From NCBI GenBank assembly GCA_051294905.1, contig CM119372.1, positions 28,584,001 to 28,648,000 on the forward strand: a stretch of 64,000 nucleotides of DNA, in the 5' to 3' direction. A program made the position numbers and the translations under genes. The notes under the pieces are model-generated. The model worked only from the letters and a program-made list of their open reading frames with translations, was not told the origin of the DNA and made no database searches. Position 1 is the first letter of the stretch; every line of letters begins with the position of its first letter. Below, piece by piece: positions 4,715 through 57,900 of the stretch. Origin of the DNA: Botryllus schlosseri (taxonomy: Eukaryota).

Positions 4715-7031
4715 CAAACTCAACTTGCGTCGCTGGCCAGATTCAAACTTTCAAACCGCTCGCGGGCCGGATCAGTCAAATCATTCCAAAATGTTACGGT
4801 ACATCAAAACGCCCGACCTTTCTTTTCGCTTGAATAGTTTATTATCAATCCTGTATACATTTTGGTATATTACATAACATTCACGATCATATCATATGGA
4901 TATATTCTAGCAGCACCTTTACTCGCAAACAACGGAAGTTTGGCAAAAATTCAAAGATTGATCGTTTGAATTCAATCGCTTAACCCTAGAACGCATGCAC
5001 AAAAAAACTTACGCTAATGCATAACAGGGGTCATTTTGACCCGTGTTGCTATTACGTGCAATTGTATTACAATGACATTGAAAATTTTTCTTTTTGTTCT
5101 TTCCCTAGATCTTTCAGTGGCGTAATGATGACATGTCTAGAGTTTCAGCTGTATTTTAATGTGAAAACCGACGAAAAACAGTGTAAAGAAGTCGATGATG
5201 AAATGAAATAAAAGTCCAGAACAGTTCATACTGCAAAGAATACTTTGATTCATTCAGTGCATTTGTTGCCTATGATCATGGTCACGCTCTATTCTGAGCA
5301 CATCGGTCTGCAACATCTGGAGCAACATTTCGTAACTTTCTTATCCCTTGCGTCTGGACATAAGGAGTGGCTATACCTACATGTAGCGTATTTGGATCTT
5401 GATGTTTTATGATTGCAAGTCAAGCTCCCAGCAGAGAATCACTAAATATTCACAAACAGCAAGTAGCATATTTCGAGCAAGCTTTTGTAACAAAGCAAGT
5501 AAAAGTGTTTGAGATTGTCAAGGTGCATGCGCAATTGCGCATTTGGTGTTGATTTGTTTTTAAGCTGTGACAACGCCATGCATACAGTGGCCCGCAGGTG
5601 AAATGCAATTAATTTCATACAAAGAAGGAAGTGAAAATTGTAATCCATCAAAAAGGTTCAGTGCAGAACCTATGAAAAAGGTTCACAGTGCAGAACTTAT
5701 CAAGGTTCGTTTGTGGACGTGAACCTCTAAATTTCGGGGGTTCAAACACAGAATGCGAACGTGAACCTCACCAAAAATCACACCATCCCTAGTAAGGAAC
5801 ACCACTTCCTATTCTGCAACGTGTTTGTTGATTGTGGGGATGGACTTCGAAAAGCTATGTCATATCTCATCTAGCCTCTCCTGTGGCTCTGTGGTGTTGC
5901 ATTGTCTATCTTGTCATCATGTGGAGCAAAATGAGGCAGTTAGCAAGATATCGATCAAACCTCATTGCTTTGAACCTTGTCCACTCATATAATCAAGTCA
6001 TACTTGTCTGAATATGGTAAATGCATTTAGAGCTGCGATGTTGAGCAGATTGTAAAAGAGAACTACAGGCCATCGACAAGATTTTCGTTTGCAAGTATAT
6101 GTTTGAACCATTTGGTCAATCAAGTCAACACAAATCTTTGTCTGTTTATAAAATCTGATGATCTCAGGCCTCTTTTTCGGGTCCATTTCTATTTCAATTT
6201 GCTGCGGGTCAAAATGACCCCTGTTATGCATTCTCGGGGTACTCAATGAAATATGCATTTTTCTTGTCAAAGGTAAAATTTTTCAGAACAAATTTTTTCT
6301 CATCATGTATAAGTATAAAAGACTAACAAAGTCCAGAAATTTCAGGATTCAATTCGCAATATGTGTTTAGCGGTTACAATGAATAACACCGTCTGGGTCA
6401 TTTTGACCCCTGTTATGCATTCTAGGGTTAAACACTGACTCTAACCACGGAATATGCTGACATATTTGTATGCTCCCTTTGTTTTAATCGTAAACTGCCG
6501 TTAACTCATCGTATGCGCTTTGAGGAACACAAGTGATTTAATTGTAAACCAGACGTTAGAATTTGGCTCATTATTAATCGTCATTCGGGTTTCTCTGTCT
6601 GTCTGGGGCCTTTGAGTAGAAGTGATACAGCAGTGCGACCAAATATATTTGAATTGTATTTTTTATAACTATTATATTCTCCATGCGTCCTGCATATAAC
6701 AGTTTTTTTTTCACTTCACGAATAACTACTTTTTGGCTCATTTCTTCATAAAAATATGAACTCAGTGTGCACTTCTTGGAGTTTTTGGAATTGGATGTCA
6801 GTATCACCAACTTGTTCCTGATGACGACTAGAGTAAAACCATAACACCACTGTCGGATAATTATAGTACGGTCTAAGATCTTGACATTTGTGGCCTTGCG
6901 GGAAGCATTTCTTACAATAATATCTCAACATTTGATAGAAAATGTGCTGGGTAATACAGGGGTTTTTCAAACTACTCAGAATTGCTTCGCAGGTCGCATG
7001 CGGCCTGCTGGCCTTATGTTCGACATCGCTA
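4715..7031. mobile_element. hAT/Charlie-type non-autonomous element nested in the CACTA element
   Basis: Direct repeat TCCTAGGC at 4707-4714 and 7032-7039; GCGGGCC-type subterminal motifs; related fragment near 12000-12130. Confidence 0.6.
4984..6427 (-). mobile_element. Internally deleted piggyBac element
   Basis: TTAA at 4980-4983 and 6428-6431; TIR CCCTAGAA(C/T)GCAT; transposase relic KRPEIIRFYKQTKICVDLIDQMVQTYTCKRKSCRWPVVLFYNLLNIAALNA (~5998-6190) and Cys-rich tail CPDARDKKVTKCCSRCCRPMC (~5295-5360). Confidence 0.9.
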
Positions 7032-24706: not shown

Positions 24707-24778
24707 GCAAAAATCACTATGAAGTAGTGTAACTACTAGATAGCCAGTAACGATTTTGAATTGTGTGCAGGTAATCCA

Positions 24779-27333
24779 ATGGAAAAGAGCCGGAAGAGAA
24801 GTTCTCGGACAAGACTGATATGCAAAAGCTGTCGTCGATCCATATCTTCGTCTTCCAAAGAAGATCACATAACGGCTGCTCATGGGGGCGATTGTTCAAT
24901 TGAGTTTAGTGTGGAAGATCATCTTAAACAAAGCAAGCTAACTTTCAAACCCATTGCTCGGCCCATTGAAGTTGAACAGTCTCAGCAGTCAGTACTGGTG
25001 CCAATCGACAGTGCACATGTAAACTCCTGCTCTCCTGAACTTGATATCCCTACTGTGGCAGTGTCTTGTCCTTCAGTGCCAGAAATACCTGTGATAGCGC
25101 CCAGTGATGATGCTTCGTCATCTGTTCCAAATTACAAAACCATTGCAATGTCAAATGTCGATCTTAGATCTAGTAGTGATTTGCAAACATCTGCTAATTA
25201 TAACATTGAACCTCACCAAATAATTCTACAACGGTACAATCCGAAGAAGTATGATGATGAGAAAAGACCAAGAGATTTCAATCCGAAGCTTTTTAAAACT
25301 CACCCCTGGCTAACATTCAACGAGAAGGACAAGACTATAGAATGCTTTCCATGCATGAAATTTAACAAATCGAAGGAGGCATTCAAGTATCTACAATATA
25401 GGATGCCTCATAAGTTGACTATTCATGCAAAGTGTAAGTCTCATCTTACAGCAATGGAAAAATGGGTTAATCTCAAAATCAATTGCTACAAAAAATCTTC
25501 GATTTTGACAAAAATGCGTGCATGCCACCAAGAAGAGGTAATGCAAAACAGGCGCTACTTGAAAGTGATAATAGAATGTTTACTTTTCACTGTGCAGAAA
25601 AATATTGCCCTACGTAATTATACTGAAAACCGACTCCACATTGATGAAAAATCAGATAGCAACCGTGGTAATTTTCTGGAGCTCCTCAATTTCAGGTGTA
25701 AAGACATTCCATGGCTAGCGTCAAGACTGGAGCATTCGTTAGCACTACATAAACAGTGGACATCCCCAATTATCCAAAATGAAATCGTCGATATAGCAGC
25801 TACTCAAGTACAGAAAGCAATTTGTACAAACATTGCTCAAGCTGGGATTTTCAGTCTCATAGTTGACGAGACGACTGATGTTAGTAATGACGAACAATTG
25901 TCGCTTTGTATACGTCATCTGATGCAAGGTCAAATCAAGGAAAGTTTCATTGGTTTTTATAATCCAAAAAACACTGAAGGCGAAACTTTGTTTCTTCTTG
26001 TAAAAAAAGTTTTAGAAGATTTGGGATTGGACATTGAGAATTTGGTTGGACAGTGCTATGATGGGGCTTCTAACATGAGTGGAAAACACAAAGGTATGGC
26101 AACCAGAATACAGAAAATTGTACCACAGGCAGTATATATGTACATTGTCATGCTCATCGTTTGAACTTGGCCCTTCAGGATACTCTGGAAGCAAATGCCA
26201 TTTTGAGAAATGCCCTTGGTTTAATACAGTCGTTGCATAATTTTTTTCACACACCAAAAAGGGAAACTATTCTACGTAGTTTTTCTGATGAAGAGAAATT
26301 TGGCAAATATGTCAAACTGAAAGGAATTTGTGTGACACGCTGGGTATGTCGTTATAAAGCGGTGAAGTCTATAGACATTCAAACCTGCCGAATAATATTG
26401 GCACTAAAAGCTTGCTCAAATGAAAAAGATTCGAAAACCTGTGTTGATGCTGCTGGTCTACTCAAGGCTGTCTGCAATTTTCAATTCCTTTTGGGACTTA
26501 AAATTTTGAATTGGATTTTCAAATTTACTGACAGCCTTTCCACCCATCTTCAAGGGACAGAAATTGATGTAGGAATTTCACAACAACTGGCAACAGCAAC
26601 CATTTCATGCTTGCGTAATGCAAGGACTAAAACGGCATTTCATGGAATCTGGGAAGACGCTTGTAAATCTGTTGAACATCTGAAACGCCAGGATGTTGAC
26701 ATCGAGGTGACTCTACACCAGAGACAGCAGTGGCCATCTAAAAGGTTCCAAGCACTGGTTGGTGAGGATGGTGAGAGGGACGCAACTAGGGGGTTTTCTG
26801 ATGAGGAAAGGATGTGCTATGAAGTGTACTTCGACGCGATTGACAGAATCTCTGCTGAGCTATCTGAACGGTTTGCCAACAACACGTCGAAAGTTCTTCT
26901 GTCGCTAGCAGAAATGGTACAAGGGAAAGGAACTATGGATGACTATAAAAAAATATCAGCCTTTTATTCCATAGATCAGGAATTGTTGGAATCTGAGTGT
27001 ATTCTGTTCCAAAACTTAAATCCGCAAGGTATGATCAAAAGTGCTGGAGAATGTACGGAACTTCTTGTGTCTACTGGCATTGGAAAAACCCTTCCCCATT
27101 TCTCGAGGGCCGCACAGATTTTTGCCACTATTCCTGCGACATCTTGCACTGCTGAAAGGTCTTTTTCAGGGTTGAGAAGGCTCAAGACCTATCTGAGATC
27201 CACTATGGGGCAGCCACGTCTTACTAACATGGCGGTATTATACCTTGAAAGAGACATGACAAATAATATTGATATTGAGGATATCATAGATGTGTTTGGT
27301 ATTCGCCATGGCAGAAACAAATACTTTTTTTGA
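24779..27333 (+). pseudogene. hAT transposase with one 2-bp frameshift at ~26133-26139
   Basis: TTF-type Zn finger (HPWL...CFPC...H...H), SNRGNFLELL, IVDETTD, GQCYDGASNMSG, TRW, IPATSCTAERSFSGLRRLKTYLRSTMGQPRL. Removing one AT from GTATATATG restores AVYVHCHAHRLNL. Confidence 0.93.
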
Positions 27334-27758: not shown

Positions 27759-28790
27759 ATGGAGAACACCACAAGCGAAACGAGTGCATTCACTGCAACA
27801 GATATGGCTTGGAATATCTTCACGAAACAGGAAATGCTCGTGATCGAGACAGCATTTGGTGCTGTTTGGCTTTTCGTATTTTTCGCGAATGCAACTGTGC
27901 TCATCGCTCTCTGCAGATTGAACAAAACACCTCTCAATGTATTCATGATCGCTTTGTGTTGTTCAGATAGTCTGTCCATGCTTGCCTCTCCATTCGCAGT
28001 CAGACAGACTTTGTATTCGTCCATGGGTAACGACTATCCTTAGAACAGACTCGTCTGCAAAGTATTGTTTCCTACGTTGGTAATTACATCTGCTATCCTA
28101 TCACTATCCAGCTCGTGCTCGTCCTATCAATATGGCGCGTTTATGCTATTAGTCACCCTCACAAAGCCGCAAATGCGATGACAGTGAGAAGAGCGAAAAA
28201 CTTAACAATTGGCATTTGGCAAATTACAGTGTTGGTAGTCGCGCCTTTATCTGCGTACTATCTAAAAGTGATTCTTTTTCTCATATCTTCAAGACTGGGT
28301 TGCTTCTTTCAAATTAGCGATAGAGAGGCGTTTTTTACGATAGTTATTAGAAAAGAGGCCGTTGTTTTTTCTTTTTCACCTAGCTCTCCTGAACTGATCA
28401 TATACACTTCATGTAGTTTGATAAGCGCCTGAATTGTGGCGAGAATTGATGACAGTCAGCAGATCAGAAATTAGTCTACAATAGGCTTTCCCTATATGCC
28501 TCGCTTTTGTAGCTGTGAAAACTTTGCATTGCTATGTCACGCTTCTGTAATCCTATACCGGCTCTCTATTGGCAAAGCGAATATCAGAGCACCATGGAGA
28601 TGACCATAAAACGCATGATAATGATTATCGCACTTTTAAGCAAGGAATGGACGGCGGAATTCGCAATTGGACGCCGCAGTCAGTCCAATACCATCGATGA
28701 CGTCCCAATCATATTTGGCGTTCGCGTCTAGTAGAAACTATTTCATTTTGCTTCGGCGATTCAAAGCGCACTTGGTGAATGCATTTATGC
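27759..28790 (+). pseudogene. Intronless class A (rhodopsin-like) GPCR pseudogene
   Basis: N-terminal glycosylation site (NTT); TM1 FVFFANATVL; TM2 NVFMIALCCSD; stop at 28041-28043 then LVCKV; DRY-equivalent SIWRVYAISHP; TM4 IGIW...VAP; several frameshifts and stops; 3' end approximate. Confidence 0.8.
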
Positions 28791-29150: not shown

Positions 29151-29968
29151 CGTACACGCAGTTGTCGTTGCTCTTTAAAACATACTAACAGCGCAATACA
29201 TATACGGTAGCCTTAAGCTAAAATGATTTACCTGCAGTCCAGGGCTGTCGTGCCTGCAGTCTTCACAAACATACGGCTTGCGCTGTATTGCCTGCAGTTT
29301 CGACACACATACACGGATCGCGCAAACTTAGGCTGCCTTGCCTGCATTTCGGACACACACACAGCTACTCTGCTGTCGCACCCGTTCTTCCAAACAACAG
29401 TGCCTGTAGTTTTAATAAGCACACGGTTTCCTTGTGGCCTCACCTGCAGATAAGAAATACAACATTGGCATATTAGCATACGCGCAGCTGCCTTGCTTGA
29501 AGCTTCCTGTTTAAGGGTCGGGTGCATGGATGCTAATCAGATTAGGGCCTAATCACTAGTTAATTGATTTCTGATTAAGCAGCAGATTAAATTCCAGGGC
29601 ATGGATAGTGATTGACTAGTAATTAATTAATCTATGATTAGCCACGTAAATGACGCATGACTGACGCATTTATCTGAGCTGACGAACCGGAACGGTTGTT
29701 TTGCACTGCTTTCAAAACATCCTACGCATAAGTTTCGGGCGTTTGTTGCTTGATAAACGATAGCTGCCGTTCAGTGCATTATCCAAAACGTATACATGGT
29801 TATCTTCATTGTCTAAATTATAAATTAATGCCTGCTAATGCCATTGTTGACAGGAATATTTCATAGCTGCTTCTGCTTACTATATCAGCTTACTATATCA
29901 GCACCCTACCAAAGTACCAATACGGTAGTCTGTTTATGGTAGTTTATTGGGCATCAAACCACTTTACC

Positions 29969-32585
29969 ATGGACTATCATCTCGATTCGATCATGCTGCT
30001 CTACAATTTGAACAACAGGAGTATACCAAGGCGTATCGTTAGAGACCGGAGTAATACAGTGGAGCACCTATCAAGCGGAGAGTTTGTACATCGTTATCGC
30101 GTGTCCAAGGATTCCTTCATGGTACTCTTGGAGATAATAAAAGACGACCTTCAATACGACTGCAAAAGAAGCCATCCTATTCCTCCCATCTACCGACTAC
30201 TTGCAACCCTACGGTTCTATTCTTCGGTACATTTTCAGAGGACTGACTGAGACTTACTGCAAATGGATAGGACGTCAGTGTGCAGAATTGTTCACCAGGT
30301 GTCAAAAGCAATTGCTAAAAGAAAGCGAAAATTTATAAACTTTCCAAACACGCAGCATCAAATCAATTTAGAACAGATGGCATTTCATAGGGAGCATCAG
30401 TTTCCCGAGGTAATTGGACTCATAGATGGTACACATTAGGGTTGTTCAAAATTTGGAAAATCTTACAAATCCTCCGTTGTAATGTCTTATTCTATAGATT
30501 ATTGATAAAAAACGACACTGAGCCTAAAAAAAGCTTACAGGAACGCCGTTAAGATTTCGTGCAAAGCGTTTGAAAGTAGCTGCCAAAGAATGGGCGTGCC
30601 ACCGACCATCGAACGGCGAGAAGACTAGTAATCACGAAACCACGGCTCTTGATTGGCTGATCGGCTATGCTTCAATGAACACGGCAGCAGCTACTTGCTG
30701 ATTATGTGATCAAGGAGTCTGCTACCGGCGGCGATTCTGGAAGCGCATTGTATGTAGGCTGACAATTAATGATTTAGGATTGATTCAGGGTATGTTGAGG
30801 TACGAAATACATGCTGAACAAACAACAGCTGCTTCATAAATCCGTCTAAAGCATGGCCGCTTTAATGCGAAGGACACCGCCGTAGCCTATATGCCTTGTT
30901 TTCAACGAGGGAAAGCATAGGCGCTTATGCAAGTGGCGACGGATTCCAAGTTTCAGAAAGGATCTATCATTATTGAATACAAATATAAAACTTAACAATG
31001 ACACTACTTTGTCTGTGTGATCTTATTGGGCTCAGGTTGTAGCACATAGTTGAAGTTTTGAAAGCTCTAAGGATCGGCTGAATCAGCGGGTTATGCTTGG
31101 CACTTATCAGATGCTTACAGCAAATTGTATTCACTTGCAAGTGTTGTCAAAGTCCTTAATGCTGACGCAGAAAAGGGGTGTAAAAGTAAGCGCATACTAT
31201 GCTGGACATGATATGTCAAAGTCCTAAATAATCGTGCAGAAAAGGAAAATAAAGGTAAGCACAGACAATGATGCATATTGCACAGTATCCAGCATAGTTT
31301 GTAAGTCATATCCAGCATAGTCTGTGTTTACATTTACACATCGTTTCTGCGGCATCATTAGGGACTTTGTAAACACTTACAAGTGAATTCAATTTGCTGT
31401 AAACATCTGATAAGGGCCAAATTTAACTGTCTGATTCAGCCGATCCCTAGAGCATTCAAAACTGCAACTATGTACTACAACCTAAGCCCAATAAGATCAC
31501 ACAAATTATATTGTCATTGTTAAGCTTTATATTTGTATTCAATAATGATAGATCCTTTCTGAAACTTGGAATACGTCGCCACTTGCATAAGCGCCTATGC
31601 TTTCCCTCGTTGAAAACAAGGCATATAGGCTACGGCGGTGTCCTTCACATTAAGCGGTCATGCTTTAGACGTTTTTGTGAAGCAGCTGTTGTTTGTCCAT
31701 CATGTATTTCGTACCTCAACATACCCTGAATCAATCCTAAATCATTAACTGTCAGCTTACATACAATGCGCTTTCAGAATCGCCACCGGTAGCAGACTCC
31801 TTGATCACATAATCAGCAAGCTGCTGCTGCAGTGGTCATTGAAGCATAGCCGATCAGCCAATCAAGAGCCGTGGTTTCGTGATTACTAGTCTTCTCGCCG
31901 TTCGATGGTCGGTGGTACGCCCATTCTTTGGCAGCTACTTTCAAACGCTTTGCACGAAATCTTAACGGCCTTCCTGTGAGCTTCTTTTAGGCCCATTGTC
32001 GTTTTTTATCAATAATCTATAGAATAAGACATTACAACGGGGGATTTGTAACAATTTCCAAATTTTGGACAACCCTAGTACACATATACCAATTAGATCA
32101 CCTGGTGGACCTAATGCAGAGTTATTCAGGAATCGAAAAGGTTATTTCTCTGTAAATGTACAAGTTGTTTGCAATTCTACAATGGAATTCACGCACATTG
32201 TCGCAAGGTGGCCAGGATCGACTCATGACAGCAGGATATTTGAATCCAGCTCACTTCCTGTGTATCTGTCACGAACGAACAAACTGCTTCTTGGTGACAG
32301 TGGATACCCACTGTTGCAAAATCTGATGACTCCGCTCCTAAATCCTCAATCCGTCGCTGAGAGGCGTTATAATAGATCCCATATATCTACCCGCATTAAA
32401 ATTGAAAGAGCGTTTGGTGTATGGAAGCAAAGGTTTCAATGCTTGATGATTCCACTGCGCACCAGATTAGATAACTCGCTCGTGATAATTGTTGCTACTG
32501 CGTGCATCCACAACTTGTGCATTCGCCGACACGAAGACCTGAGCGACATTATGCAGCTCTCGGATAACGTTGCTGATGTGATAAA
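29969..32585 (+). pseudogene. PIF/Harbinger (HARBI1-like) DDE transposase, interrupted by a foldback element
   Basis: FVHRYRVSK...LATLRFYS...(TGA at 30248)...FPEVIGLIDGTH | insertion | IPIRSP...NRKGYFSVNVQVVC...WPGSTHDSRIF...LLGDSGYP...IERAFGVWKQRFQCL...CIHN. Probable left end TAA|GGGTCGGGTGC at ~29515; right end not found. Confidence 0.92.
30437..32077. mobile_element. 1.64-kb foldback (long-TIR) element
   Basis: Inverted arms of ~775 bp (30437-~31210 and ~31308-32077); termini TAGGGTTGT / ACAACCCTA; perfect TSD GTACACAT at 30429-30436 and 32078-32085. Confidence 0.95.
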
Positions 32586-33842
32586 CAGCACCGTAACTGC
32601 CGCACCCCAAACCCCCCAATTGGGGGGGGGCCAGCTCGACGGGGGCCCAAAATTATTTCGTGAATTAGCATAAATCATAGAGTATTTTTTGAAAATTTAC
32701 GCAATTTTTTCAAATGACCGTTTGTCTTTATTATTGGGTATTGGGCCATTACCGCGCCAAGACCTACCAAGACATACAATCAAGTTTTGGGCCATATAAC
32801 ATGCGACTCCAAGAAGTGTGCCAGAACGATCGGCAGCGAGAAAACCTTGGCCGAAAAGGTCTATGCCCTTATGCTGACCGAAGATTTCGTTATATATACA
32901 AACTACATATAGGTTTAATTGTCCATAGGCGCCTAAATGACTGTCGCCGAATGTTGCTGTCTTTGCAATCTGAACCTCACTAGACAAATACCATCCCGCG
33001 GGGAAAAATTTTATACCAGTGAAGAAATACCAATTTGAAATCGTGTCCGTCTCTTAGTTTAGAAGCTCACGTTTTGGCGATTCTATATTTTTTGTTATAG
33101 CAGACTGAAAGTCACGAAATAACATTATGTAACGAAGTCATATCAACGGGTCCGCCCGCCGAAGATGTTTAATTATTATTTACGGGCTCTCCCGCTTTCC
33201 AGACACTTCACTCGGCTCTACCGGTGAATCTAATTACGTGAGTAGAGAGGACAATAAATTGATAGCATAATATATATGCAATCGCCGATCTGATTGACCG
33301 ATTTTATCATAAATTATCGATAATTTTCGCGCCTCGCGCTGCCTCACAATACAGTACAGATGATGTCGTGACAAACGCGAACAACGTGATGGGGGGTCGT
33401 TTTACACCCTATGGGGGCCCAAGACCCACGTTTTTGGGGCCTGACGAAGTACTGTTTCGTTCCTGCCAATGGGTATACGCCCGAAGATGTTTAATTATTA
33501 TTGAGTCGTCCTACCTTTTCAAACACACCTCACTCAGCTCTACCGGCAAATCTGATTACGTGAGCAGAGAGAAGATAAAAATTGATAACAATATATATGC
33601 AATTCCCGATCATACTGACCGATTCAATCATGAATTCGAGAAATTTTGCGCGCTTCGCGCGCTTAGGCGACAAAAGCTGATTCGCTAAACAAACTCCCAA
33701 CAATATGATAAATAGCGGTAAACAGGGTATCGCTGGAGGGGGATCTGGGGGGCGAAGCCTCCCAGAAGTTCGGCCTATAACCCTATGCGGGGCCCAAGAC
33801 CAAAGTTTTTGGGGGGCCTGACGAAGTGCTGTTACGGCCCTG
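32586..33842. mobile_element. Non-autonomous DNA element (CAG(G/C)NCCGTAAC termini) with an internal ~320-bp duplication
   Basis: Ends CAGCACCGTAAC and GTTACGGCCCTG; homologous partial copies at ~39350-40047 (+), ~53270-53590 (-) and ~53820-54398 (-); TSD not evident. Confidence 0.7.
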
Positions 33843-42245: not shown

Positions 42246-43003
42246 ACCTAGACGAAGAAAAATAAACCCCATGGGCACCGTACGGATAACATACGGAGTT
42301 TAGAGCTTGACGGCATCCGCAATATCTTACTTGAATATGTCGCTGCATCGAGAGAAAATACCGCAATTCAAATAAAAAAAAGTCAACAGAGCCTACCGAA
42401 CGAACAACTAAAGACGTCTTTATCCATTTATCATGGATTCGTCCTATTTCCACCTGCTTCCAAAAGCAATTGATTTCTGCGCTCAGTGAGTGTTACGACA
42501 CAGTTAAAACTATCATGATATATTCTGTTTGCGCGAAAAATTATCGAGATGACAGGTTTCGCGTCGTCAGGAAAAGGAGAAGCCGTTCGCACTTTCATAT
42601 GTATGACTTGAAGTCTGTTTTTATCAAAACACGCCAACATCGTTTGTGCCAACAGCAGTACTTCGTGTACCAAGTGAAAGTAGTACACTGAAGTAAAGCG
42701 ATCACTTCATATTTTGAAATTTTATGCTTATGACGTCATATTGGGTGCTGACAATTACCCCCGATGTGTGTCATCCCAAAATACCCCGCTTTATTGCAAT
42801 ATGAATATACTATTGAATTCGGTATTGTAGAACGAAGTGTCTTGGTTACTTAGATACAACGCAATAATCGTTATCCGCCTACTGTTAAACAAGCTCCTAA
42901 AATCCGGTTGGCAAAATAATACAAAAGCCCTATTGTCTACTTCGTTTTCAATGTAATGACTAACATATGGAATCTAATGGTACATATTTCCTTAATATTA
43001 GAA

Positions 43004-43062
43004 TATAAGGCGGCATCTTACAACGAATTTCACTCGTCTGTTTTATTCGACTGCTGTGTATG
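43004..43062 (+). promoter_or_regulatory. Putative core promoter and non-coding exon 1 of the peptide precursor gene
   Basis: TATAAG at 43004-43009, Inr-like TCACTC at 43030-43035 (about 28 nt downstream), donor G|GTAAAA at 43063, and acceptor TTTTATCACGCATACAG ending at 43483, 34 nt before the ATG. Confidence 0.55.
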
Positions 43063-43517
43063 GTAAAAAATGTGCGCAGTAGCAATGTGTGTAATAGCAA
43101 TAGTTTGAATAAAGGTTTGGCTATGTGATATATAGCTGAACTGAGTATTCAATGATAACTCAATAATTTCTGGTAGACGTTCGTTTTATATTCTTTCAAT
43201 AATCTCAGAAGCTGTCGCTGTACTCTGTCACTCGGTTTGAAGTGGCATGCAGATATTTCTACTTATACTTCAAACTTGTCCAAATGCTAAATTCGTCATT
43301 AGTCGATGTTCATGTTCTTCAAGTTTATCGGTCATCAACATAGTTTACTGTCAGCATTTCTTATGGAGTGGACTATGCCGGTCCTATACATTTCACCTGC
43401 ACGGTGTACATACACGACAGTGTCAATTATCTCATTTATCCCTCTATCTCCAAGACAACTCCATTGTTTTATCACGCATACAGATAGGAGATTTGAATTT
43501 GAAAAATAACTGACGAT

Positions 43518-44731
43518 ATGAGGGGACTAGTACTTGCAACTTTTCTGGTGCTGGCTATGGTGACATCGAGCCATGCATGGCTTCATGTTCACTTTCATTT
43601 TGGGTAAGATTTATCAATATACATATCTTCTATCATAATTGATCTTTGGAAACGCCTCGCACATTGCTCCAAACGCCTACCCCATTCCATATAACAGATT
43701 TATGACATCATCAATATTGGTCGGTCGTTTAAATTCACTAACAAGCGACCCTCACGTTCCGACATAACCCATATGCGATTGCTAGATCGAGCAGAAGTTG
43801 AAAGCAAAATGAATAGGCGCTGTGTGACGCTTTATTTACTCCGTTTCGTTATAAGGCCGGAAAAGATTGACCTGACTCCCCGCACTTACGATCTTAATTC
43901 TTATTAAGACACTATTACTTCAATCGAGTCGCAGTGATTCGTGACATTGGCAAAATACTTTTCCACTTTCCATAGGTGCTATTAATGTCCACTTAATTTA
44001 CTAGGGTTAATGTTTGCTTACTTTGCAGGGATGAAGCGGGAGAGCCTGGCGAACATGAAAAGCCGGAGGAGCACGAGGGTGAGAGGCATGAAGATGTACA
44101 TTTTCACTGGCGTCCTGCGAGTAGGAGGTAAGATTCAACGATATATAAATATGTGAATTGTACCATTGTACAAAGATTGTATCGGTCGAAACATCTCGTA
44201 CATTACCTTAGATGCCTCATCTATTCCTCGCACCAGATATAGTCACCGTCAATATGATTTGGTATAGGTCGCTGACGACCAACCGAGGGATCGTCAGCGC
44301 ATTCTGGTAAACCAGAAGTTGAAACTAAAATCAGAGGGAGCTCTGTGACATGTTATTTGCCTTGTTCTGTTATCAGACTGGAAGAGATTGTGCTACCTCG
44401 TCTTAGAAACTCATAATTTTCATCATTGAGGCATTATCATATTAAAGGCACGCGAGTTTCGGGACAATGGCTTAATACTTTTGCGCATTCCAGATGCCAA
44501 TGTGTCCACCTAATTTACGAGGGTCAATGTTTGCTTACTTTGTAGAGATGAAGAGGGAAAGCACGAGGAGCACGAACATGAGAGGCATGAAGATATTTCA
44601 GGTATTATTCCATATTGTTTCTAAAGATAATGCAAATCCATCATTTTCGCTATACCCTATTCACAGCCATGCTGAGGGATATCATCCAGCAACATCGTAA
44701 CGACGGGAATGCGGCAAACTCCTTTCAGTAG
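43518..44731 (+). CDS. Spliced secreted His-rich peptide precursor, plicatamide-like (101 aa); coding exons 43518-43603, 44029-44127, 44546-44601, 44667-44731
   Basis: Manual splicing at GT-AG sites with consistent phases (2,2,1) gives MRGLVLATFLVLAMVTSSHA|WLHVHFHF-G-DEAGEPGEHEKPEEHEGERHEDVHFHWRPASRR-DEEGKHEEHEHERHEDIS-AMLRDIIQQHRNDGNAANSFQ*. Signal peptide is hydrophobic and ends S-H-A. Donors GTAAGA, GTAAGA, GTATTA; acceptors TTTGCAG, TTTGTAG, TTCACAG. If the last 65-nt intron is retained, the ORF ends ...DISGIIPYCF* at 44624. Confidence 0.85.
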
Positions 44732-45070
44732 GAAGAATGCAGTCTTGATTTAATATCTCAAACCGGCGCAATCATCGGATGTGATTAAGAATAGAAAAAA
44801 TACATCATGTAATTCAAAGCAACGTGATATATTTGCTTCCTACCTTCGGGTGTTCTATGAAGGACTGAAATATTTCTGAAATGGGTTATGACAGAGAGAG
44901 AGAGAAAGCATTTATTTTCATCCAACCGAAATACCCAACAAACTGGCAGCAATAACAGTGGTACAGAAAATAGGCACGTACTGGATACGGTATTAAATAG
45001 GAATGGTCGATCCGACCTTTCATATAAACTATATAGTCTGATCCCACCCGCTTCAAACATGCCTCTACAC

Positions 45071-54936: not shown

Positions 54937-57900
54937 TAGGGTTGCCATACGTCCGGAATTTCCCGGACTTTTCCGGAATTTCACTGTAAAAACTGCGTCC
55001 GGTAGGAATTTCTAAAATACGCCTAAATGTCCGGAATTTTGAAGACTTGAAGTAAGCTAATTTTTTTTTATAAATCATAAACAAGATTATTTTTGGACAG
55101 ATTTATGCTACATGAAATTTTTCTTCGCGCTGCGCGCGATTTAGTATCAGGAATATTGGTTTTAATCCTTTGTGGACTAGCGTAACAAATTCGGTACATA
55201 GCGAATTACATCATTTTATACCGACTTTACGCATACTTGACACAGCCACGACGGCCGTCGCAGATAGTACACATTCCGAACTTACCTTTAGCGCCTTTTA
55301 AAATAGAGTGTTTGGAATGCAAGGTGGGTGTCCCGGACGTTGTTTATTGCATTGGCATGTCTAAGTGAAGTCGGTGGACCCACGTTCTTTGCTGCTTCGC
55401 GGTCGAAGGATTTGGTGAGTATATTCGTTAATAAAAATATGTATAGGATTCTTTACACCAGAAATAACATAGCCAGAAGTGTTTTGGATCAATAATATGT
55501 TATTTTACTTGGCAATGTTGAAAATGAGGAGTGATGCGAATTTGCATCATTGGCCTTTTGTTGGTAAACTCTGACAACATTCCTACTACTGAAATATTTC
55601 CATATTGAATAGCTATTTACGTGAGGAAAGTGGGGAATAGATTCACCAACTTCACGAGTCAAGAAAGTGCCTTGATACAGTGCATAAAGACAAGGAATAT
55701 GTATAAACTAACTACTAGAATTCAGTGTGCATGCCTCCTCTTTACATCGCCTAAGCCAAGGTGGGTGTCTGATTCCACAGACTATACTTCAAGTCGCTTC
55801 GACACCTTCCTGTCCTTTCATTGTATCGCATTTTTGTGGTGTATTGAACTGATAAAAATTGCTAATAAACCAATGATGATAGAATAGTGCTAAACAGATA
55901 GCAAATATTATCGATAATTTCAATCAGAATATGCTGCTGCAGCAATGGACACCAGATGTTTTTATGGAAAAAAAATCACTCATCAAGTGACGTTACACTG
56001 AAAAGGCATTACAGATGGTGGCTGTGATTCTGACGATGAAGAACGTTCTACTGCAGCAACTTCTGCTACCATGTGATAAATGAGCTCGGATGAATCCTCT
56101 TCACCCGATGAATCTGATGAAGATTCCTCAATCGTTTTTTCAAAAGTTGAAAAAGGAAAAACACCGGGTCATATTGTATGTAGACCGCATGAACCGCAAC
56201 GAAAATCTATCTGGAAAACAATTCAAGGTGAAAAGATCCCTTGCTACTAATTTCCTATGTGGAAGGCAGAATTGCTCGACAGTGACTACTCTATTTCTTC
56301 TCCGCACACATATTTCGAATATCTTGTTGGAGCGGAATTGCTGGACAGGATTGTTAATGAGAGCAATTTATTTGCTGTTCAAACTAATCCAACGAAGGCA
56401 ATACACATGACCAGAGATGATTTTGAAAAATTCTTGGGATGTTGCATGCATATGTCTATCGTAAAAATGCGAAGATCCTATATGTACTGGGCCAATGATA
56501 CTAGATATGATAAAGTTTCTGATATCATGTCCCAAAATCGATGGAAGCAAATCAAATCTTTCTTGCTCATTGTTCATCCCGCATAAGGTGATTTTATGCA
56601 GTAGGAACTGTGCGATCAAACAGACTGTCTGGCTGACAATTCAGTATTGGCACTGACAGCAGGACAAGAAGGAGAGGGAGATTTGAAGTAATGGAAGTTT
56701 CTCTGGACGGCGTTAGTATTCAGGCAGTAAAGTGGTATGACAATCGCAGTGTGCTATTGGCCAGTATCTTTGTCGAAGCAAATCATGTTAGGAAAATTAA
56801 AAGATGGCACAGGAGACGAAGTAACGCTCACAGGTGGACTACCCATTCATTATCGAACAGTACAATTCATTTATGGGTGAGGTTGATCTTCTGGATGCCT
56901 ATTTGGCTTATTACAGAACATGTATCCGCTCAAAAAAATATCACATGTAATTGTACTTTCATGTGTCGTCAATAGTTAGTTGCTGTACAGGCGGGACTGG
57001 GATTTTCTGCAATTTCCGAAATAGAAGCAAAAAGGTCTGCTTGCTTCCAAATTATATGCAGAATACCTGGTAAAATATGGAAAATTAGTAACCGGAGAAA
57101 AAGAGGGTGGCCATCCCTCTGTATCCAGCAGGAGTATCATAAGACAAGGAAAAGAGGACCAATAAAGCCCACCCAAACGTGACCAAGTGGGTCACACGCC
57201 TGCCGTGGACACCAGGCAGAGATACAAGAGACAAACCTGCAAAGAGCAATCGGCTATAAAATGTGTCAAATGTCATGTACATCTGTGCCTGAACAAAAAC
57301 TCTAACTGTTTTGCTTATTTTCAACAATAATTTCAATTGTCAAAACTGCCCTGTTTTGTTTCGATTTTTTGTCGCGAAAGCCTGACGTCGCAAATTTGCG
57401 ACAAACATTTAAAATAATAAATATTGAAAAAAAAATTAAAGTTTTGTTGACCAATGTCTAAGTTGAGGCAAAACAATTAAAGTTACGCATAGAAATAATT
57501 TTTCCAATCATAGAGAATATATTCAGTCCACAAAGGGTAAGAAGACTACCACCCTCGCAAAAATGGCGATCAAAAATAAATATAAAATGACGTTCATTTA
57601 CAAAAAGAAGTCTGATTGTAATCGCAATTACAAGATGACGGTATATTCATAGAGTCGGTTTAGGGCAGGCCGTTTGGAAGCTTTATTCAAAGATGGCGGT
57701 TCTAAACCTGAGGGTAGTTTGCCTTTATTCTGGGTTTCGCGAAGATATTGAAGCGAACGTAATTAGCTTCCCAAATAGGCCGTGACTAAGTCTGGGCAAA
57801 TGTGCTGACATTTAATTAGTAATCAGCTCATCAAATGTTGAGCTGGGCCACGGCACATTTTCAAATTGGAAATGGAGTAGCGACCATTAAAGGTTGGAAA

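Follow-up and report, generated by a model that had tools for sequence, protein, structure and literature searches.

How plicatamide, tunichromes and halocyamines are synthesized has been an open question ever since these compounds were discovered. In 2010, a review described the mechanisms and sites of synthesis as unexplored and considered ribosomal and non-ribosomal routes both possible (PMC3039461), and a 2023 review still listed tunichromes under unidentified pathways (PMC10880069). The locus analyzed here raises the question of whether a peptide with the plicatamide pattern is encoded in a styelid genome and, if so, how it would be released. It lies in a stretch of 64,000 nucleotides, hereafter the window. 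Our reading is that the gene belongs to a cluster of six that encode small secreted prepropeptides built like the precursors of styelid haemocyte antimicrobial peptides (AMPs), and that its core is released as a Tyr-less, amide-ended counterpart of plicatamide. We give this reading a probability of roughly 0.45.

We found that the locus contains a spliced gene with four supported exons that is abundantly expressed (Table 1). All four coding exons have GT..AG borders, the last exon being read here to its stop codon (44667-44731). The coding parts of the exons are 86, 99, 56 and 65 nt, and the initial annotation was right that the gene is invisible to an open-reading-frame track because every one of them is shorter than 100 nt. 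Translation of the spliced frame gives the 101-aa product that had been described, with a 20-residue signal-like start abutting WLHVHFHF, followed by Gly and an acidic tail. One RNA contig from run X1 (384 nt, depth 85.7) and one from run X2 (411 nt, depth 582) each span all three coding junctions, and one contig from run X6 crosses 44127/44546. Raw RNA-seq reads from X23 (about 6 in 100 of the run sampled; 3,271 of 12,895,792 records placed on the locus) cross the same junctions: 293 reads (147+146) at 43603/44029, 376 (207+169) at 44127/44546, and 291 (121+170) at 44601/44667. The mRNA level in X23 is about 254 reads per million, or roughly 590 RPKM. We placed the poly(A) site from the X1 contig, which ends in 11 A after position 44822.

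Table 1. Positions of the gene and its parts in the window.
Feature	Position	Strand	Remarks
Proposed non-coding exon 1	43004-43062	+	RNA support none; begins on TATA-like box
TATA-like box TATAAGG	43004-43010	+	
Exon 2 (first supported exon)	43484-43603	+	Sequence, translation, RNA contigs and reads
5' UTR in exon 2	43484-43517	+	
Start codon ATG in exon 2	43518	+	
Putative signal-peptide codons 1-20 in exon 2	43518-43577	+	
Octapeptide core, codons 21-28 in exon 2	43578-43601	+	
Gly29 codon, first two bases, in exon 2	43602-43603	+	
Tandem duplication, about 520 nt	43792-44594	+	Intron 2 (3' part) and exon 3 repeated as intron 3 (3' part) and exon 4
Exon 3	44029-44127	+	Completes Gly29; acidic His/Glu-rich stretch, second V-H-F-H-W motif, R-P-A-S-R-R at end
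Exon 4	44546-44601	+	Shorter acidic His/Glu-rich unit; internal duplicate of exon 3
Last exon (exon 5)	44667-44822	+	C-terminal 21 codons, stop, 3' UTR
TAG stop	44729-44731	+	In last exon
3' UTR	ends 44822	+	91 nt from stop to poly(A) site
AATAGA and AATACA hexamers	20-32 nt upstream of poly(A) site	+	

The 5' end differs from what had been proposed. The initial annotation described five exons joined by four junctions. The three coding junctions are borne out by the X1 and X2 contigs and the X23 reads, but the joint 43062/43484 is absent from the joints listed for the four RNA runs, leaving four supported exons. Depth was 0 over 42950-43141 in all four runs. The proposed exon 1 begins on the TATA-like box, and these bases therefore cannot themselves be transcribed. 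The main contig from X2 does not extend past 43482 and retains the genomic AG; exon 1 ends in TG. The TATAAGGCGGCATC string of exon 1 is kept in the paralog L005, where the donor GT is AT, and the identity of exon 1 to L005 (74%) is not above that of introns (68-81%). The stretch may be a promoter plus a short first exon, or an outron. Spliced-leader trans-splicing at 43484 can only be inferred, from the point where the X2 contig stops and from the trans-splicing reported in B. schlosseri (PMC3691228).

The predicted protein falls into two parts, with a sharp change of composition at Gly29. The signal-like start has Arg2, a hydrophobic run of 12 residues, Ser at -3 and Ala at -1; our assessment used only the -3/-1 rule and the hydrophobic run, by reading the sequence. 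The mature 81 aa would contain 13 His (16%), 22 Asp+Glu (27%) and no Cys, with a net charge of -12 at pH 7, and the spliced product is predicted to be mostly low-complexity. The computed charge of the core is about 0 at pH 7 and +2.75 at pH 5. The core is followed by G-D-E. Without Lys or Arg after the Gly, the classical route to an amide through prohormone convertase and carboxypeptidase is not encoded. Exon 3 encodes a second V-H-F-H-W motif and ends in the sole dibasic site, R-R, which reads R-T-K in L005. The internal duplication was recognized from four direct-repeat families with a spacing of 499-521 nt and 71-82% identity.

The genome belongs to a tunicate of the family Styelidae, either Botryllus schlosseri itself or a species very close to it. 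On C9, a GT2 cellulose-synthase-like exon is followed 3.3 kb downstream by a GH6 exon in the same orientation. The GT2+GH6 cellulose synthase fusion is known only from tunicates. Both published ISH primers for Botryllus schlosseri botryllin have exact matches, convergent and 2.2 kb apart, and the botryllin epitope GWYNKHKPTIHK is encoded across an intron in the same genome. The assembly contained no match to COX1, and the hAT transposase gave no taxonomic information in the ESM Atlas. The link to plicatamide needed a tunicate source, and these markers provide one; Styelidae is also the family of Styela plicata.

We found six intact paralogs, including the gene under study, within 310 kb on C2 (28.42-28.73 Mb). 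All six have intact frames of 101-102 aa and GT..AG sites. On the assumption of cleavage after Ala20, the core W-[L/F]-H-V-H-[F/I/L]-H-x follows a near-identical signal peptide (18-20 of 20 residues identical across paralogs) in 6/6 genes. Within the core, W1, H3, V4, H5 and H7 are the same in every gene, and variation is confined to positions 2, 6 and 8. The proposed octapeptide length and His register of plicatamide, with His at positions 3, 5 and 7, were thus found in every paralog. All six genes encode W-L-H or W-F-H at the start of the core, which would be an NH2-X-X-His motif only if signal peptidase cuts after Ala20. At core position 8 the paralogs have F, I, C or N, and none has Tyr; type A and type B proteins have no Tyr anywhere. 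Lacking Tyr at this position, the core cannot give rise to the dehydro-DOPA end of plicatamide, and the oxidized or decarboxylated C-terminus offered in the initial annotation is not supported as a DOPA-type end. The Gly that had been noted after the core is present in 5/6 genes, where an acidic His/Glu-rich tail comes next. The exception is L006, which has Cys-Trp in place of Gly and in which 9-10 residues precede the acidic part.

Conservation was uneven along the gene. Exon 2 is its best conserved part, at 87.5-91% identity between paralogs over the full length of the exon. In the comparison with L005, the coding sequence of exon 2 is 92% identical, that of exon 3 75%, and the introns 68-81%. 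The internal His motif encoded in exon 3 is not retained in L005 or L006. Among paralogs, pN/pS for the whole coding sequence is 0.33-0.46, and pN for the signal peptide is 0-0.046. Type A and type B genes diverge by about 1.5% over 3.1 kb, and the only two fixed coding differences, L22F and F28I, are non-synonymous and fall within the 24 nt of the core. Among the X23 variants listed in the coding part of exons 2-3, 5/5 are synonymous and none is in the core. A non-coding RNA or a decaying gene is ruled out by the open frames and splice sites in six paralogs, by pN/pS below 0.5, and by the synonymous-only RNA variants in exons 2-3.

We searched for relatives of the family and for genes that might act on its products. 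No homolog outside this genome was found in the protein libraries or literature searched. The stop-to-stop frames holding exon 3 (44 aa) and exon 5 (46 aa) gave no candidates in the protein libraries, and an exon 2 query gave no usable match in the ESM Atlas. An HMM of four distinct exon-2 products, run against 1.84 billion representatives, gave two matches (E about 3e-4). We judged these spurious, as repeat-derived frames without a signal peptide. The initial annotation had looked to paralogs with an FFHLHFHY core, but an exact back-translation of this peptide had 0 matches in the genome. A looser pattern, hydrophobic-H-hydrophobic-H-hydrophobic-H-Y, had 52 genome matches versus 313 for a reversed control, and in 0/52, judged by eye, was there a Met and a hydrophobic stretch upstream in the same open frame. 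Two of the 52 matches, on C1, adjoin what reads in the DNA as fibrinogen-domain-like coding sequence.

In the window, 141 open frames (13, plus 128 of the 159 that reach at least 70 aa) were scanned against Pfam, and no processing or modifying enzyme was found among them. The matches were transposase domains, a sub-threshold 7tm_1 (GPCR-like, 28031-28432), and a sub-threshold TPR_Trm732_C (29867-30250). The initial annotation knew of no described precursor gene, and our literature search agrees with this: papers on plicatamide, tunichrome and RiPP yielded no precursor gene for plicatamide or tunichromes. The core strings appeared in the literature only in an unrelated hydrogel context, and none of the papers listed for histidine-rich products in Botryllus concerned this gene family.

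The data establish how the gene is built and spliced, its high mRNA level, the make-up of the family and its pattern of conservation, and the taxon. The following steps describe how the peptide may be made and used; we infer the cleavage sites, the amidation, the cell type and the activity of the octapeptide. Signal peptidase would cut after Ala20 and so expose, as the new N-terminus, the hydrophobic His-rich octapeptide W-[L/F]-H-V-H-[F/I/L]-H-x. The octapeptide would then be split from the anionic His/Glu-rich propiece at the Gly-Asp boundary and probably amidated via the Gly. The free peptide is predicted to carry an NH2-X-X-His (ATCUN) site for Cu or Ni and an H-x-H-x-H face, and would go from uncharged at pH 7 to about +2.75 at pH 5. 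The predicted ATCUN site and the pH-dependent charge together suggest a pH- and metal-switchable, membrane-active defence peptide, for which the acidic tail would serve as a neutralizing propiece.

A different possibility is that the protein is never cut. The whole mature protein is acidic and could function as an uncut, disordered, His/Glu-rich protein of 81 residues, secreted or vacuolar, that binds or buffers protons or metal ions (Cu, Ni, Zn, Fe) in blood, haemocyte vacuoles or tunic; cross-linking through metal coordination is also conceivable. In that case, the N-terminal run of W-x-H and H-x-H-x-H would be where the protein binds with the highest affinity and would not be released as a peptide. 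We regard this as possible but hold it with some doubt. Its composition (16% His, 27% Asp+Glu, no Cys, net charge -12), the duplication of H-E-rich units within the gene, the second V-H-F-H-W motif in exon 3, the lack of a basic cleavage site after the core, and moderate purifying selection on the whole coding sequence (pN/pS 0.33-0.46) all fit such a protein, as does an mRNA level as high as for a bulk protein. Release of an octapeptide is also at odds with the absence of Lys or Arg after the Gly, with the missing Gly in L006, and with the size and charge of known styelid AMPs, which are cationic helices of 23-37 residues and not neutral octapeptides; nor did the libraries searched contain a homolog to show conservation of the core across species. 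However, the acidic exons diverge about like introns (exon 3 75%, introns 68-81%), in contrast to the 92% identity of signal peptide and core, and the internal His motif has been lost in L005 and L006. We took the strong conservation of signal peptide and core, and the fixed A/B changes in the core, as evidence for a processed peptide. The layout mirrors known styelid prepropeptides whose acidic part is discarded as a propiece, and a natural octapeptide of the same register, plicatamide, exists in a sister genus; we counted plicatamide and the botryllin and clavanin/clavaspirin layouts as precedents from the same family.

If an octapeptide is released, its chemistry and role could still differ from those we propose. 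The gene could be the Botryllus ortholog of a true plicatamide or tunichrome precursor, the C-terminal residue being oxidatively decarboxylated to an enamine in a strict animal RiPP pathway. The animal family, peptide length and His register are the same, and reviews deem a ribosomal route possible while leaving the pathway unidentified (PMC3039461, PMC10880069). We consider this unlikely. With Phe, Ile, Cys or Asn at position 8, and with no Tyr in the type A and B proteins, no DOPA-derived end can form, and the Gly that follows the core suggests amidation instead of decarboxylation. The back-translation of FFHLHFHY had no match in the genome, none of the 52 loose-pattern matches lay behind a signal-like stretch, and no modifying enzyme was found among the 141 window frames scanned against Pfam. 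Less likely still is a neuropeptide- or hormone-like precursor from which a short amidated N-terminal peptide would act on a receptor. A short peptide abutting the signal peptide and followed by Gly, and a dibasic R-R at the end of exon 3, are consistent with such a precursor. In contrast, the Gly is not followed by a basic residue, the dibasic site is changed to R-T-K in L005, and bulk expression is very high. Six recent polymorphic copies, with extra variants in the RNA reads, fit an immune effector better than a hormone. His-rich hydrophobic octapeptides are not a known type of tunicate neuropeptide.

Returning to a processed defence peptide, we suggest, tentatively, that in these six genes the precursor family of plicatamide-class styelid peptides may be seen for the first time at the genome level. 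These peptides would be host-encoded and ribosomal and cut by a protease at an unusual Gly-Asp site, and the last core residue would decide the C-terminal chemistry. If this is true, ribosomes make the small His-rich "natural products" found in tunicate blood cells, and these are cut from directly behind a signal peptide, with an amide end in Botryllus and a decarboxy-dehydro-DOPA end where residue 8 is Tyr, as one would predict for an ortholog in Styela plicata. In a styelid that is amenable to laboratory work, an expressed and conserved gene family encodes a plicatamide-patterned octapeptide abutting a signal peptide, and this makes the question of origin experimentally addressable. Apart from the plicatamide link, this is an unannotated, highly expressed and apparently lineage-restricted family of secreted proteins. 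An ATCUN/His-cluster metal site is predicted for its members, and the protein libraries searched contained no counterpart.

Plicatamide, an antimicrobial octapeptide, offers a comparison of peptide pattern alone, since no plicatamide precursor is known. It occurs naturally in styelid haemocytes and carries His at positions 3, 5 and 7 of its eight residues (PMC3039461). The Botryllus core shares the styelid source, the eight residues, the His register, and aromatic or aliphatic residues at positions 1, 2, 4 and 6, and is identical at 5/8 residues in type B and 4/8 in type A. Position 1 is Phe in plicatamide and Trp in the Botryllus core. Plicatamide ends in decarboxylated dehydro-DOPA derived from Tyr, whereas the Botryllus core has F, I, C or N at position 8 and then Gly (L006 excepted). 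Neuropeptide-type Gly-Lys/Arg or dibasic sites flanking the core are absent, G-D-E being found there instead. Histatin-5 and piscidins are ATCUN-bearing His-rich host-defence peptides. The likeness to them would lie in a free N-terminus with His at position 3, further His, and a pH- and metal-dependent activity, the free N-terminus and the activity being predicted for the Botryllus core; they are longer, cationic, vertebrate peptides from unrelated genes.

Within the styelids, botryllin comes from the same genome. The botryllin peptide lies directly behind its signal peptide, is followed by an acidic Asp/Glu-rich propiece, and is stored in morula cells (PMC9966394). Both precursors have a Trp-first peptide abutting the signal peptide and an acidic propiece after it, but botryllin is a strongly cationic peptide of 37 residues, its mature part split by an intron, in a 158-aa precursor, and the octapeptide family shows no significant similarity to it. 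The best blastp E value was 1.1, in a comparison with the 50-aa botryllin first-exon product only. More generally, known styelid AMPs are cationic amphipathic helices of 23-37 residues, whereas the Botryllus core has 8 residues and is about neutral at pH 7. The clavanin post-piece is anionic, with acidic residues right after the Gly. In the precursors of clavanins and clavaspirin (Styela clava), a signal of 19 aa is followed by a propiece of 10 aa, a stretch of 24 residues that takes in the Gly for amidation, and a post-piece of 27 aa (PMC8719109); the ATCUN site used by clavanin C is X-X-His at the N-terminus (PMC8424629). These are His-rich haemocyte peptides, and as in the Botryllus precursor the peptide is followed by Gly and a post-piece, with no N-terminal leader enzyme needed. 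Clavanins are 23-residue amphipathic helices behind a 10-residue propiece; the Botryllus core is 8 residues long and abuts the signal peptide. The layout of styelid AMP prepropeptides, i.e., signal, peptide, Gly and acidic C-terminal propiece, is present in the Botryllus family, with the Gly in five of its six genes.

We found that 43484-44822 is a real, spliced and polyadenylated gene. Its four coding exons (table) join into a 101-codon frame, which opens with the ATG at 43518 and closes with the TAG at 44729-44731, as translated from the spliced sequence. Four public RNA runs with the same organism label (X1, X2, X6 and X23, the last as raw reads from ~6% of the run) were placed on 42950-44850. 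One 384-nt X1 contig and one 411-nt X2 contig crossed all three coding junctions, and one X6 contig also crossed 44127/44546. Junctions 43603/44029, 44127/44546 and 44601/44667 were spanned by 293, 376 and 291 X23 reads, respectively, and depth in the introns dropped to zero or 3-6. An X1 contig terminated in eleven A after 44822. An (AG)n microsatellite lies shortly 3' of this poly(A) site (44892-44905) and is 14-16 bases longer in the paralogs L003 and L004. In X23, 3,271 of 12.9 million records were assigned to 42950-44850 (~254 per million; very roughly 590 RPKM, taking a 0.43-kb mRNA).

The initial annotation had described five exons. The three coding junctions and four of the exons were borne out, but the non-coding exon 1 (43004-43062) was not: it had zero depth in all four runs, and the 43062/43484 joint was seen in none of them. 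The main X2 contig ended at 43482 and retained the genomic AG, in contrast to the TG at the end of exon 1. The first bases of exon 1 form a TATA-like box that is kept in the paralog L005; the donor GT is not kept, and in this comparison conservation of the stretch did not exceed that of the introns. These observations would fit a promoter near 43004 combined either with a very short first exon or with spliced-leader trans-splicing onto 43484. Trans-splicing is reported in B. schlosseri (PMC3691228).

Features of the window, the paralog family and the source genome (assembly G000; C2 and C9 are two of its sequences)
Feature	Position	Strand	Detail
Coding exons of the window gene	window 43484-43603, 44029-44127, 44546-44601, 44667-44731	+	GT..AG borders
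Type A (window gene and L002)			core W-L-H-V-H-F-H-F
Type B (L003, L004)			core W-F-H-V-H-F-H-I
L005			core W-F-H-V-H-I-H-C
L006			core W-F-H-V-H-L-H-N, then C-W in place of the Gly of the other genes
Exon-5-like fragment	G000:C2:28457938-28457997	+	isolated, in-frame TAA, 70% identity
hAT-type transposon, two long open frames	window 24740-27333	+	DUF4371 1.4e-20; hAT C-terminal dimerisation domain 4.3e-10
PIF/Harbinger-type frame	window 32023-32673	+	DDE_Tnp_4 4.3e-33
piggyBac-type fragment	window 56251-56586	+	DDE_Tnp_1_7
piggyBac-type fragment	window 6001-6282	-	DDE_Tnp_1_7
GPCR-like open frame	window 28031-28432	+	rhodopsin-type 7tm_1, 22.7 bits, cut-off 30.5
GT2 and GH6 exons	G000:C9:15025585-15029521
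Second GH6 match	G000:C9:15068570-15068854

The product begins with a signal-like stretch, read by eye (Arg2, a 12-residue hydrophobic run, Ser at -3, Ala at -1). It is followed by a hydrophobic, His-rich octapeptide core, Gly29 (its codon split by intron 2) and a 72-residue tail. The predicted 81-aa mature protein is 16% His and 27% Asp+Glu, with a net charge of -12 at pH 7; types A and B contain neither Cys nor Tyr. The core alone was computed at ~1.12 kDa, with no charge at pH 7 and a charge of about +2.75 at pH 5. If cleavage occurs after Ala20, the W-x-H N-terminus would be an ATCUN copper/nickel motif. Exon 3 and its intron are duplicated in tandem (~520 nt) as exon 4 and the intron upstream of it. 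Exon 3 encodes a second V-H-F-H-W motif and an R-P-A-S-R-R end, neither retained in L005 or L006.

Genome searches with exon-2 DNA and with exon-2, exon-3 and exon-5 proteins each returned the same six loci on C2 (28.42-28.73 Mb). Nothing credible was found outside them in these searches; the extras were one noise match (E = 4.45) and the exon-5-like fragment, probably a pseudo-exon within the cluster. All six genes have conserved splice sites and intact frames of 101-102 codons, and they encode four distinct products. Intron 3 of L005 is enlarged to 2.8 kb by repeat insertions (locus L020, G000:C2:28447300-28453200, minus strand); short palindromic repeats of the GACTCGAGTCA type abound in the insert, which is MITE-like in appearance. 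Hundreds of X23 reads with loose ends at 44547, 44601 and 43604 led into exon-3 and exon-5 variants absent from the six assembled genes, with a consensus agreement of only 0.55-0.74; one carried an H-I-H-V-H motif ahead of P-A-S-R-K. They point to additional members or alleles, and other genotypes probably carry more members than the six.

Conservation was greatest in exon 2, whose coding sequence is 92% identical to L005, while exon 3 reaches 75% and introns 68-81%. Among paralogs, 18-20 of the 20 signal-peptide residues are identical, and core residues W1, H3, V4, H5 and H7 are invariant. Over the whole coding sequence, pN/pS was 0.33-0.46. Across about 3,100 aligned bases, types A and B show 44-50 differences, and the only two fixed coding differences (L22F and F28I) both fall within the 24-nt core. 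This suggests possible selection on the variable hydrophobic core positions, in counts far too small to test. Within the coding sequence of exons 2-3, all five variants listed for X23 were synonymous, and the core had no X23 variant at 10% or above. The non-synonymous variants in exons 4-5 (H68P, M82L, H90Q) are states found in L005 and L006.

In the 495.5-Mb source assembly, the window occupies C2:28,584,001-28,648,000. On C9, this genome carries an exon resembling GT2 cellulose synthase (Pfam Glyco_trans_2_3, 1.8e-16) that contains a QRSRW motif. It is followed 3.3 kb downstream, in the same orientation, by a GH6 exon, and a second GH6 match is found 43 kb off. Two CesA-like genes may stand here in tandem. 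Tunicate cellulose synthase is typified by a GT2-GH6 fusion. Both botryllin in-situ primers tabulated for Botryllus schlosseri in PMC9966394 matched C11 exactly, convergent and 2.2 kb apart, and the published epitope GWYNKHKPTIHK is encoded there across an intron. The forward primer has two matches 55 kb apart (G000:C11:9117417 and 9172179), one exact and one with 1 mismatch, and the inspected copy has two residues unlike the published C-terminal epitope; botryllin may be duplicated or polymorphic. Taken together, the GT2/GH6 exons, primers and epitope identify the source as B. schlosseri or a very close relative. B. schlosseri is a styelid, in the same family as Styela plicata and S. clava. 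A non-tunicate source would have weakened the proposed link to plicatamide; the tunicate source found here instead favours that link.

No relative was found in a 5.8-billion-cluster word search, a 1.84-billion-representative HMM search or the ESM Atlas, at low sensitivity because the queries were single exons. In the literature searched, the core strings occurred in no relevant context, and no precursor gene for plicatamide or tunichromes was described. A Pfam scan of 141 open frames in the window gave nothing else relevant, only transposase frames and two sub-threshold matches, TPR_Trm732_C and the GPCR-like frame, the latter perhaps an exon or a remnant of a receptor gene. The surroundings of the gene are transposon-rich, otherwise gene-poor DNA.

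We tentatively favor, at a probability of roughly 45%, a defence prepropeptide. The octapeptide would be cut free at the Gly-Asp boundary and amidated; it would then be active on membranes and switched by pH and metal, and the acidic tail would serve as a propiece. Against this reading, no basic residue follows the Gly, and L006 lacks the Gly. The main rival, somewhat unlikely in our estimate, has the acidic His/Glu-rich protein work uncut, as the molecule that binds metal or protons.

Strict plicatamide-type maturation is improbable: it is contradicted by the missing Tyr, and none of 52 looser core matches sits behind a signal-like stretch. The genome moreover contains no FFHLHFHY core. An L-H-F-H-F-H-Y open frame present twice on C1 (27.19 and 27.25 Mb) adjoins fibrinogen-related-domain-like sequence in another frame, as read by eye; it has no signal peptide and was judged unrelated to the family. 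Copy number, polymorphism, expression level and missing convertase sites all speak against a neuropeptide role, which we regard as very improbable.

The cores equal plicatamide in length, share its 3-5-7 His register and are identical to it at 4-5 of 8 residues. The suggested link to tunicates and the plicatamide pattern is strengthened. However, a defining feature of the plicatamide/tunichrome class is lacking: no core has Tyr at position 8, which precludes a DOPA-derived enamine end. Of the two C-terminal chemistries proposed, an amide is possible and a DOPA-type end is not. The family shares its overall precursor plan with styelid antimicrobial peptide (AMP) precursors. Clavanin and clavaspirin precursors carry, after the signal peptide, a propiece of 10 aa, a stretch of 24 residues that contains the amidation Gly, and a post-piece of 27 aa (PMC8719109), and clavanin C has an N-terminal X-X-His site that binds Cu(II) (PMC8424629). 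Botryllin, in the same genome, has Trp directly after the signal peptide and then an acidic propiece (PMC9966394). In contrast, the family departs from the clavanin/styelin/botryllin class in peptide length, charge and sequence similarity (E = 1.1 to botryllin, compared with its first-exon product only). Because it mismatches both classes, we place it as a styelid AMP precursor architecture with a plicatamide-patterned octapeptide, which would be a new combination.
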